From positions 608,863-672,862 of the forward strand of contig NZ_OZ245727.1 in assembly GCF_965227205.1 (NCBI RefSeq): a stretch of DNA of 64,000 nt, given 5' to 3'. Positions 3,232 to 4,562 of the stretch are shown here, piece by piece. The DNA comes from Pedobacter sp. (GTDB taxonomy: Bacteria > Bacteroidota > Bacteroidia > Sphingobacteriales > Sphingobacteriaceae). Positions within the stretch are counted from its first letter, which is position 1, and each line of letters opens with the position of its first letter. A model generated the notes under the pieces. It ran no database searches. It worked only from the letters and a program-made list of their open reading frames with translations, and was not told where the DNA came from. The translations under genes were made by a program, and so were the position numbers.

Positions 3232-3262
3232 CTTACAAATCTGTCCTTTAGATTTGCAATGG

Positions 3263-3455
3263 TCTAAAATGATTGAATTGATTTATATTTAACAAGTTAC
3301 CTAAATCGGTAGCGGCTCATTAAGCGTTGTCAAGGTTAGATACCTATAGACTGATATAATCCGCTACCGATTTTCCCTTAGTGACCAGATAACAATTAGG
3401 GCATTACCCATTATTAAGGACTTGGATCGATGGGGTAAAACTTAGGTAATTGCTA
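3263..3455 (+). ncRNA. Predicted IS110 bridge RNA (target-binding and donor-binding loops)
   Basis: Outer stem 3297-3304/3442-3449; 13-bp stem 3303-3315/3361-3373 enclosing guides TGTC(3328-31) and AGACTGA(3348-54); second stem enclosing ATAACAAT(3389-96) and AAGGA(3416-20); 5' and 3' ends approximate. Confidence 0.85.
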
Positions 3456-3476
3456 CAAATTTAAAGAATAAATAAT

Positions 3477-4496
3477 ATGATTAATACAAATTTCTTTATT
3501 GGGATTGATGTATCAAAGCCCTACTTTGATGCTTCTTTAATGACTGTTATCAGTCATGTAAAACAAGCTATCCAAAGCGCCCGGTTTGAGAATACAGCTT
3601 CTGGGATAAAGACATTTGAGAAATGGCTTAAATTTCATAAGGTCACCTTTAATCCAGACACTCTGGTGGTGATTGAAAATACAGGGATCTATCACCGGCT
3701 AATCTGGTCATTCTGCAGTAACAAACACGTACCAATTCATATTGGTAATGCAGCCCATATTAAATGGAGTTTTGGGATAGCTAGAGGAAAGAATGATAAG
3801 ATAGATAGTGTCCGTTTATGCAAGTATGCCTTTAAGGAATCTGATACATTAAAGGCCACAGAAGCCTTAGATCCACAGTTATTGCATTTAAAAGATTTCA
3901 TATCTGCCAGAACAAAATTACTCAAGCAGGCTACAGGACTTAGCGTTTCAATTAAAGAGCTAGGTAATGTAAATGAAAAATCACATCAGAAACTAATTGA
4001 GAAAGCACTTAAATCTGCTATTGATGGAATAGCAAAATCGATTAAAAATATTGAAGAACAAATCCGCAAAATTATTAAAGAAAACAGCGCCTTTCAACGA
4101 AACTATAACCTGTTGACCGGTATACCAGGGATCGGACATGTCACCGCGGTTTACCTGATTGGTTGTACAGCGAATTTTGCCAGCAACCCAAGTGGAAAGC
4201 AATTGGCATGCTATGCAGGAGTCGCTCCGTTCGAGCACTCGAGCGGGATTAGTGTAAAAGGTAAAACCAGGGTACATAGGATGGCAAACAAAGACCTTAA
4301 AAAACTACTACATCTATGCGCATTATCAGTTATCCAACATAATATGGAATTCAAGAACTACTACCAAAGGAAAAAGGATGAAGGTAAGCATAGCATGAGT
4401 ATACTTAATGCAGTGAGAAATAAAATAACGCTAAGAATAGCAGCTGTAATTAAAACACAACAACCTTATAAAAGCAATTATAATATAGCAGCCTAA
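3477..4496 (+). CDS. IS110-family DEDD transposase/recombinase
   Basis: GIDVSK (D), IENTGIY (E), KNDKIDS (D,D), IPGIG helix-hairpin and SSG catalytic-Ser motif; ORF intact, 339 aa. Confidence 0.97.
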   Translation: MINTNFFIGIDVSKPYFDASLMTVISHVKQAIQSARFENTASGIKTFEKWLKFHKVTFNPDTLVVIENTGIYHRLIWSFCSNKHVPIHIGNAAHIKWSFGIARGKNDKIDSVRLCKYAFKESDTLKATEALDPQLLHLKDFISARTKLLKQATGLSVSIKELGNVNEKSHQKLIEKALKSAIDGIAKSIKNIEEQIRKIIKENSAFQRNYNLLTGIPGIGHVTAVYLIGCTANFASNPSGKQLACYAGVAPFEHSSGISVKGKTRVHRMANKDLKKLLHLCALSVIQHNMEFKNYYQRKKDEGKHSMSILNAVRNKITLRIAAVIKTQQPYKSNYNIAA

Positions 4497-4562
4497 TTTG
4501 CAAAAGTCATAACAATCAGTCTGAGCTTGTCGAAGACCAGTTTCAAAACAGTTTCTTTAATT

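Follow-up and report, generated by a model that had tools for sequence, protein, structure and literature searches.

A predicted split promoter of the Bacteroidota type assembled at the joined ends of an IS110-family insertion sequence

The stretch of DNA analyzed here (64 kb of contig NZ_OZ245727.1, positions 608,863 to 672,862; GC content 35.6%), which we refer to as the window, carries an IS110-family insertion sequence (IS) whose two ends, once joined, would form a promoter of the type read by the primary sigma factor of the Bacteroidota. The IS begins 14 bp past the stop codon of cydB (2227-3231) and has the same orientation as this gene, and a scan of the window predicted no terminator between cydB and the left end of the IS. 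The transposase contains the Pfam domains DEDD_Tnp_IS110 (PF01548, E 9e-18) and Transposase_20 (PF02371, E 3e-22), scores 162 bits against a cutoff of 140 for the NCBIfam model NF033542 (IS110 family RNA-guided transposase), and is aligned over residues 6-334, its full length, by the recombinase structures of ISCro4 and of IS621 from Escherichia coli (E ~1e-17). The same element body was found at five independent insertion sites, comprising the window locus and four others, and its depth in isolate assemblies, about 6-fold over that of the flanks, indicated a copy number of about six per genome. The features of the element and its surroundings are as follows, in coordinates of the window.

3246-4517, + strand: IS110-family insertion sequence, 1,272 bp with one core copy counted
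3477-4496, + strand: IS110-family RNA-guided transposase (bridge recombinase), 339 amino acids, TAA stop at 4494-4496
3244-3245, + strand: left TC core copy, closing the left target half ..CTG-TC
4508-4517, + strand: right-end donor half CATAACAA and right TC core (4516-4517), inside the spacer of the predicted promoter
4518-4538, + strand: right half of the host target repeat (AGTCTGAGCTTGTCGAAGACC), outside the IS, with uninterrupted copies elsewhere in the window
3305-3371, + strand: target-binding loop of the bridge RNA by fold prediction, with stem ATCGGTAGCGG (3305-3315) pairing with CCGCTACCGAT (3361-3371)
3389-3420, + strand: guides of the donor-binding loop, namely ATAACAAT (3389-3396), identical in sequence to the right terminus, and AAGGA (3416-3420)
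4497-4500, + strand: -33 box TTTG, in the right end directly after the TAA stop, 17 nt before the element end with the core included
3249-3256, + strand: -7 box TAGATTTG (TAnnTTTG), in the left end, 3 nt past the core
3261-3264, + strand: predicted transcription start of the bridge RNA, placed from the position of the -7 box

The ends of the element were examined by aligning the flanks of the five insertions. This revealed a common block from GTCC (3243) to GACC (4538), the last 21 bp of which (AGTCTGAGCYTGTCGAAGACC) correspond to a dispersed host repeat; a C/T polymorphism between insertion sites falls within 4518-4538. IS-free copies of the repeat occur in the window at 24040, 24062 (- strand), 50016, 53267 and 53731, and the copy at 50006-50031 reads ctgtcagttt GAGCTTGTCGAAG acc (ctgtcagtttGAGCTTGTCGAAGacc). 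Ends at GTCC and GACC with a CC core, which would have destroyed the promoter geometry, were rejected because 4518-4538 is present elsewhere as IS-free host repeat and because an empty-site contig and both loops of the bridge RNA put the ends at TC. The dinucleotide TC (3244-3245 and 4516-4517) is the sole sequence duplicated at both ends. Since the repeat occurs uninterrupted in places that lack the IS, the target is ..TG-TC-AGTYTGAGC.. with TC as the only duplication, and insertion took place at the TC within the dispersed repeat ..TTG-TC-AGTYTGAGCYTGTCGAAGACC. The core is TC here, compared with CT in IS621. The empty site of this very locus was recovered from a phyllosphere metagenome, in a contig that runs from 3243 straight on to 4516 and lacks exactly 1,272 bp, two letters at the joint being ambiguous; in a contig from an isolate assembly, unrelated sequence abuts 4516 and the repeat is uninterrupted. 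The ends 3246-4517 and the TC core put forward in the original prediction are therefore correct to the nucleotide.

The left end of the element encodes a bridge RNA. In its target-binding loop, the left target guide CGTTGTCA (3325-3332) is identical to the left target plus core (TTGTC), and the right target guide AGACTGA (3348-3354) is the reverse complement of the core plus right target, TCAGTCT. About 24 relatives with differing flanks likewise carry the reverse complement of TC plus five nucleotides of the right flank at a constant left-end offset, ~153-158 (the guides include CGCCGGA, GCAATGA, TATCAAGA, GGCTGGA and AGTGCGA), and the left flank plus core is matched at an offset of ~131-134. 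In the donor-binding loop, AAGGA (3416-3420) is the reverse complement of TCCTT, the core plus the start of the left end. In 27/27 elements, the variable letter of the right terminus (CATA[A/G]CAATC) agrees with that of ATA[A/G]CAA in the left end. No Rfam family matched the bridge-RNA region at E <= 1 besides a chance-level match to Termite-leu. Features recognized in the IS110 group were found here: a DEDD RuvC-like N-terminal domain and a C-terminal Tnp (Transposase_20) domain in the recombinase, the absence of terminal inverted repeats, insertion at a specific sequence with a core of 2 bp on both sides, and a left-end non-coding RNA with a target loop corresponding to the flanks and a donor loop corresponding to the joined element ends. 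By domain, structure and guide matches the element, as originally proposed, is a typical bridge-RNA IS of this group, and its predicted circle junction is known to the base because the target and donor guides confirm the ends independently.

Variants of the element were also present in sequencing runs. Some contigs (X8, X9, X18, X19, X25) share at least 95% identity with the IS past ~3358/3371 and differ in the target-binding loop (window positions 3328-3371), where they have, for example, ..TATGAGATGATGC, ..TATGCAATGATAA or ..TAAGGAATGATGC; this suggests that elements nearly identical in all other respects have been retargeted naturally. A biofilm-metagenome contig from run X12 joins 3469 to 4258, skipping 788 bp (two ambiguous letters), and corresponds to an internally deleted derivative that lacks the transposase and retains the whole bridge-RNA region and the right end.

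Joining the ends through a single TC yields TTTG-caaaagtcataacaaTC-ctt-TAGATTTG. Both motifs read exactly where they had been predicted, at 4497-4500 and 3249-3256, and the predicted spacer of 20 nt was confirmed. The spacing between the -33 and -7 boxes of Bacteroidota promoters was reported as 19-21 nt by Bayley et al. in 2000, and the N20 spacer lies within this range. The Bacteroides primary-sigma consensus that the prediction took as its premise is stated as -33 TTTG / -7 TAnnTTTG (PMC9330008, PMC7366714), in papers that give no spacing, and the junction is a perfect match to both boxes. Read as a sigma-70 promoter, the junction gives TTGCAA-N17-TAGATT, an 8/12 match below the sigma-70 scan threshold, and a scan of the integrated element predicted no sigma-70-like sites on the + strand of its left end. 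Counted over both strands of the window (128 kb), there are only two occurrences of the full pattern TTTG-N19-21-TAnnTTTG, where shuffles expect 3.4; the chance rate from shuffles is ~3e-5 per position and strand, and the prior for a match at one predefined place is ~1e-4 to 1e-3. The -7 motif TAnnTTTG alone is present in 79 copies, with no enrichment over shuffles. The two TTTG boxes (4497-4500 and 3253-3256) are direct repeats at 15 nt and 7 nt from the core, and the donor recognition sequence CATAACAA-TC-CTT falls within the promoter spacer. As in other junction promoters (Pjunc), each end provides one box and functional spacing arises only after the ends have been joined.

Evidence on the host was consistent with a promoter of this type. 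Four Flavo-1 RNA motifs in the window exceed the Rfam threshold:

14808-14969, + strand: Flavo-1 RNA motif
24446-24577, + strand: Flavo-1 RNA motif
37659-37814, + strand: Flavo-1 RNA motif
49971-50069, - strand: Flavo-1 RNA motif

Close relatives of the IS come from Chitinophagaceae, Pedobacter, Gelidibacter and other Bacteroidota, and TAnnTTTG clusters 8-26 nt upstream of several open reading frame (ORF) starts in the window. Because of the Flavo-1 motifs, the Bacteroidota relatives of the IS and the TAnnTTTG motifs upstream of ORFs, the host is assigned to the Bacteroidota and hence would use the primary sigma factor of this phylum; GC content, Flavo-1 motifs and the TAnnTTTG positions pointed to Flavobacteriia as the probable class. 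One further motif, TATATTTG at 843-850, sits 25 nt ahead of cydA, which starts at 876, and is likely the host -7 box of the cydAB operon; read-through from this operon would run into the IS.

Conservation of the junction was assessed in 39 related loci from genome collections, all from Bacteroidota save one contig in a metagenome-assembled genome labelled Cyanobium. These included 27 intact elements, with ends set from the conserved termini and verified by the guides, which gave 25 distinct junctions; the transposases of the 25 distinct relatives are 50-78% identical to that of the window. Columns -21 to -18 from the right end contain T in 22, T in 24, T in 25 and G in 21 of the 25 junctions, and the -33 position reads TTTG in 18/25 and CTTG in 3/25. 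The spacer to the -7 box is 20 nt in every one of the 25, and TAGnTTTG is found at the same offset in 24. The columns that flank TTTG and those that follow the -7 box vary freely; the tract 5' of TTTG is A-rich, and CATA[AG]CAATC at the right end is conserved across all relatives. TTTG follows the stop codon after anything from 0 to ~29 nt, and therefore the box is anchored to the element end and not to the gene. TTTG at N19-21 was found in 1/28 integrated left flanks compared with 19/28 junctions. This pattern is the one expected of a promoter that exists only in joined form and, with boxes and geometry kept in 25 relatives and a -33 box rarely supplied by integrated flanks, it supports the original suggestion that the promoter is fitted to the sigma factor of the phylum.

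More distant elements were also examined. Cytophagia relatives (36% identity) retain CCTTTAG[AG]TTTG at the left end. The distant plasmid IS110 elements of Chondrinema (L053/L054) fit loosely, with CCATAGAAATC as the right end, ATAGAAAT as the donor guide, and cTTG-N21 or TTTG-N17 preceding TAGGTTTG at the junction. For the distant Bacteroidota plasmid elements L055-L060, two copies were insufficient to fix the ends. A Legionella relative (L061/L062) has an apparent sigma-70-like junction, TTGCAT-N16-TAAAAA, with a guessed core, and the contrast is tentative.

Joined ends were then sought in nature. A scan for CATARCAATCCTTTAGNTTTG identified six metagenome contigs with joined ends in relatives, with transposases 55-59% identical to that of the window and, at N20, TTTG in four and CTTG in two. 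Four of these contigs, whose termini overlap by 127 nt, were assembled as one-element circles with units of 1,346-1,358 bp. The other two are head-to-tail dimers in chromosomal context, with a single TC in common and copies that differ by 1-2 bases:

L050, reverse strand, 3676-6378: head-to-tail dimer
L052, 1628-4347: head-to-tail dimer

The circular assemblies could stem from collapsed dimers. Either way, the junction of these relatives, and hence the complete promoter sequence, is present in real molecules. The dimers L050 and L052 are predicted to carry a permanently assembled junction promoter.

On the evidence of its geometry and conservation, the element probably uses a split Bacteroidota primary-sigma promoter, assembled only when its ends are joined, to express the bridge RNA and the transposase. 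As long as a single copy stays integrated, its -7 box would meet unrelated flanking sequence and only basal transcription, or read-through from cydAB, would occur. Joining of the ends via one TC, in an excised circle or a head-to-tail dimer, would place the boxes 20 bp apart, and the completed promoter would drive the bridge RNA and then the transposase behind it; re-integration would split the promoter again. We infer from sequence a start at ~3261-3264, a junction that is stronger than the integrated end, and the existence of circles of this element.

The closest described system is IS621 of E. coli, in which a sigma-70 junction promoter drives the bridge RNA and integrated copies rely on read-through (PMC11208160, PMC13626964), and it provides the precedent for the premise that IS110 elements form sigma-70 junction promoters. 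The two elements share the recombinase family (full-length match, E ~2e-17), a bridge RNA encoded in the left end and containing a target loop and a donor loop, insertion into a host repeat at a core of 2 bp, an upstream box in the right end and a downstream box in the left end with the donor core in the spacer, and an integrated copy that lacks the upstream box. They differ in the boxes and their spacing (sigma-70 -35/-10 at ~17 nt in IS621, Bacteroidota -33/-7 at 20 nt here); the transposases are only distantly related, and activity of the element described here is predicted. Junction promoters are also known for IS492 and ISEc11 of the IS110/IS1111 group, in references listed in PMC13626964, and those of circles or dimers of the DDE elements IS911, IS2, IS30 and IS21 are reviewed in PMC9330008. 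A transient fusion promoter that forms only when the ends abut is common to all of these and to the element described here, and the (IS)2 dimers of those systems are paralleled by the tandem dimers L050 and L052 of relatives. In contrast, the junction promoters of those systems are sigma-70 promoters in Proteobacteria, and IS911, IS2, IS30 and IS21, as DDE elements, have inverted repeats and lack a guide RNA. Compared with sigma-ABfr promoters (PMC7366714, PMC9330008), the match to both boxes is exact; here, however, the boxes lie on opposite ends of a mobile element and are united by recombination. The review PMC9330008 notes that promoter formation by transposable elements should depend on the promoter grammar of the host. 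We found no description of a Bacteroidota-type split or junction promoter in an IS110 element in the searchable literature. The predicted -33/-7 form of the known IS110 junction-promoter mechanism is well supported by sequence comparison, and it is biologically expected.

Several observations weigh against this model. Seven of the 25 relatives lack a full TTTG (three have CTTG, two TTTT, one TTTA and one none). The CATAACAATC/CTTTAGATTTG junction of the exact element was absent from Logan contigs of 12 DNA runs from isolates and metagenomes, in which contigs drop rare forms. RNA contigs from public metatranscriptomes show no 5' end and stop at assembly (de Bruijn) branch points; the X25 RNA contig extends 146 nt upstream of 3358 and the X8 DNA contig of the same variant 147 nt, and RNA contig ends are uninformative on the start because the DNA contig ends alike. 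In the X25 phyllosphere metatranscriptome, a contig of the bridge RNA of a related variant (equivalent to 3358-3471) had a depth of 473 and transposase contigs had depths of ~6-30; the value of 473 fits an abundant non-coding RNA and is silent on the promoter of this RNA. A -33 motif was not recovered in a global study of Flavobacterium johnsoniae, as quoted in PMC7366714, and therefore it is uncertain how strongly the joined and integrated states would differ in a flavobacterial host. Integrated copies may be transcribed appreciably from the -7 box alone, in which case the switch would be a matter of degree and not of on or off. Finally, the TAG of the -7 box lies next to the donor sequence that the bridge RNA reads and may extend into it, and this could account for part of the conservation of the TAG.

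One alternative explanation is that the conserved boxes are recombination signals, contacted by recombinase or bridge RNA near the donor core, and that the promoter match is incidental. Both boxes are indeed within 21 bp of the core, the core-adjacent CTTTAG is as invariant as the donor-loop guide AAGGA, and the left-end sequence is kept even in the Cytophagia relatives. However, a 22-bp IS621 donor (~11 bp per side) is enough when the bridge RNA is supplied in trans, and TTTG here, at 15 nt from the core, would lie outside it; deletion of the -35 box of IS621 alters expression only (PMC11208160). The TTTG motifs are moreover direct repeats at unequal distances from the core, unlike symmetric protein sites; both boxes and the spacer together fit the host promoter consensus, at ~3e-5 per position, and the variable base of TAGnTTTG coincides with the 'n' of the consensus. 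We consider this explanation unlikely. A different account holds that the integrated copy is expressed by the left-end -7 box acting alone or by read-through from cydAB, so that joining adds little and there is no switch. Read-through into the IS is possible because no terminator was predicted after the co-oriented cydB, 14 bp away, and read-through is needed for excision of IS621 (PMC13626964); the absence of a genome-wide -33 motif in F. johnsoniae, as quoted in PMC7366714, points the same way. This account, which we regard as quite unlikely, leaves unexplained why 18-21 of 25 diverged elements keep TTTG at a set distance of 17 nt from the right end amid drifting non-coding columns and why the junction spacing is constantly and exactly 20. 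It might also be argued that, at a genomic GC content of 36%, two short AT-rich motifs came to lie together by chance, as TAnnTTTG alone is common (79 copies, not above shuffles) and the pattern was sought after the fact. The full pattern, in contrast, is rare, its position is conserved in 25 relatives and six natural junctions, and it is near-absent from integrated flanks (1/28); chance is effectively refuted by this conservation and is very improbable. The split promoter assembled on end joining remains the reading that we favor.

The host sequences surrounding the IS target showed several additional features. The dispersed repeat ..TGTCA(N4)GAGCYTGTCGAAG.. was found at 24040-24074, 50006-50031, 53257-53279, 53721-53743 and 4518-4538. 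The copies at 24040 and 24062 form an inverted pair, and those at 53267 and 53731, 464 bp apart, are each preceded by a near-identical 60-nt stretch. The Flavo-1 copy at 49971-50069 holds the target-like repeat (50006-50031) on its opposite strand, and because of this the IS target may belong to the repeated Flavo-1 RNA motif or be linked with it. A weak Flavo-1 match is located just right of the IS, at 4596-4731 (- strand). An additional contig from run X25 (~90% identical) links 3163-3231, at the end of cydB, to the region beyond the IS at 4583-4635, with 67 unrelated bases replacing 3232-4582, and represents a related strain without the IS and without the local target repeat.

In a broader and more tentative interpretation, the split promoter could be a conserved sensor of excision, locked to the phylum and serving a large clade of bridge recombinases in the Bacteroidota. 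If this were true, productive transposition would be confined to hosts with a sigma factor of the sigma-ABfr type, head-to-tail dimers of the L050 and L052 kind would act as master copies that are always 'on', and the elements would provide independent evolutionary evidence for use of the -33 TTTG in Flavobacteriia, Chitinophagia and Sphingobacteriia, groups in which genome-wide surveys missed the box. Because the donor site lies in the spacer, a bound complex of recombinase and bridge RNA could repress the promoter and thereby feed back on expression. For annotation, TTTG at 17 nt from the right end and TAGnTTTG at 3 nt past the core would provide a rule for locating bridge-RNA 5' ends and element termini in Bacteroidota. 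Published work on bridge recombinases in Bacteroidota relies on taxon-specific synthetic promoters (bioRxiv 10.64898/2026.04.29.721476), and the native junction promoter and bridge RNA would offer compact scaffolds for such tools. The logic of a promoter rebuilt on excision would extend past the enterobacterial IS621, re-implemented by selection in another promoter grammar. This suggests a host-range barrier for such elements and would provide comparative evidence on the importance of the -33 box beyond Bacteroides.

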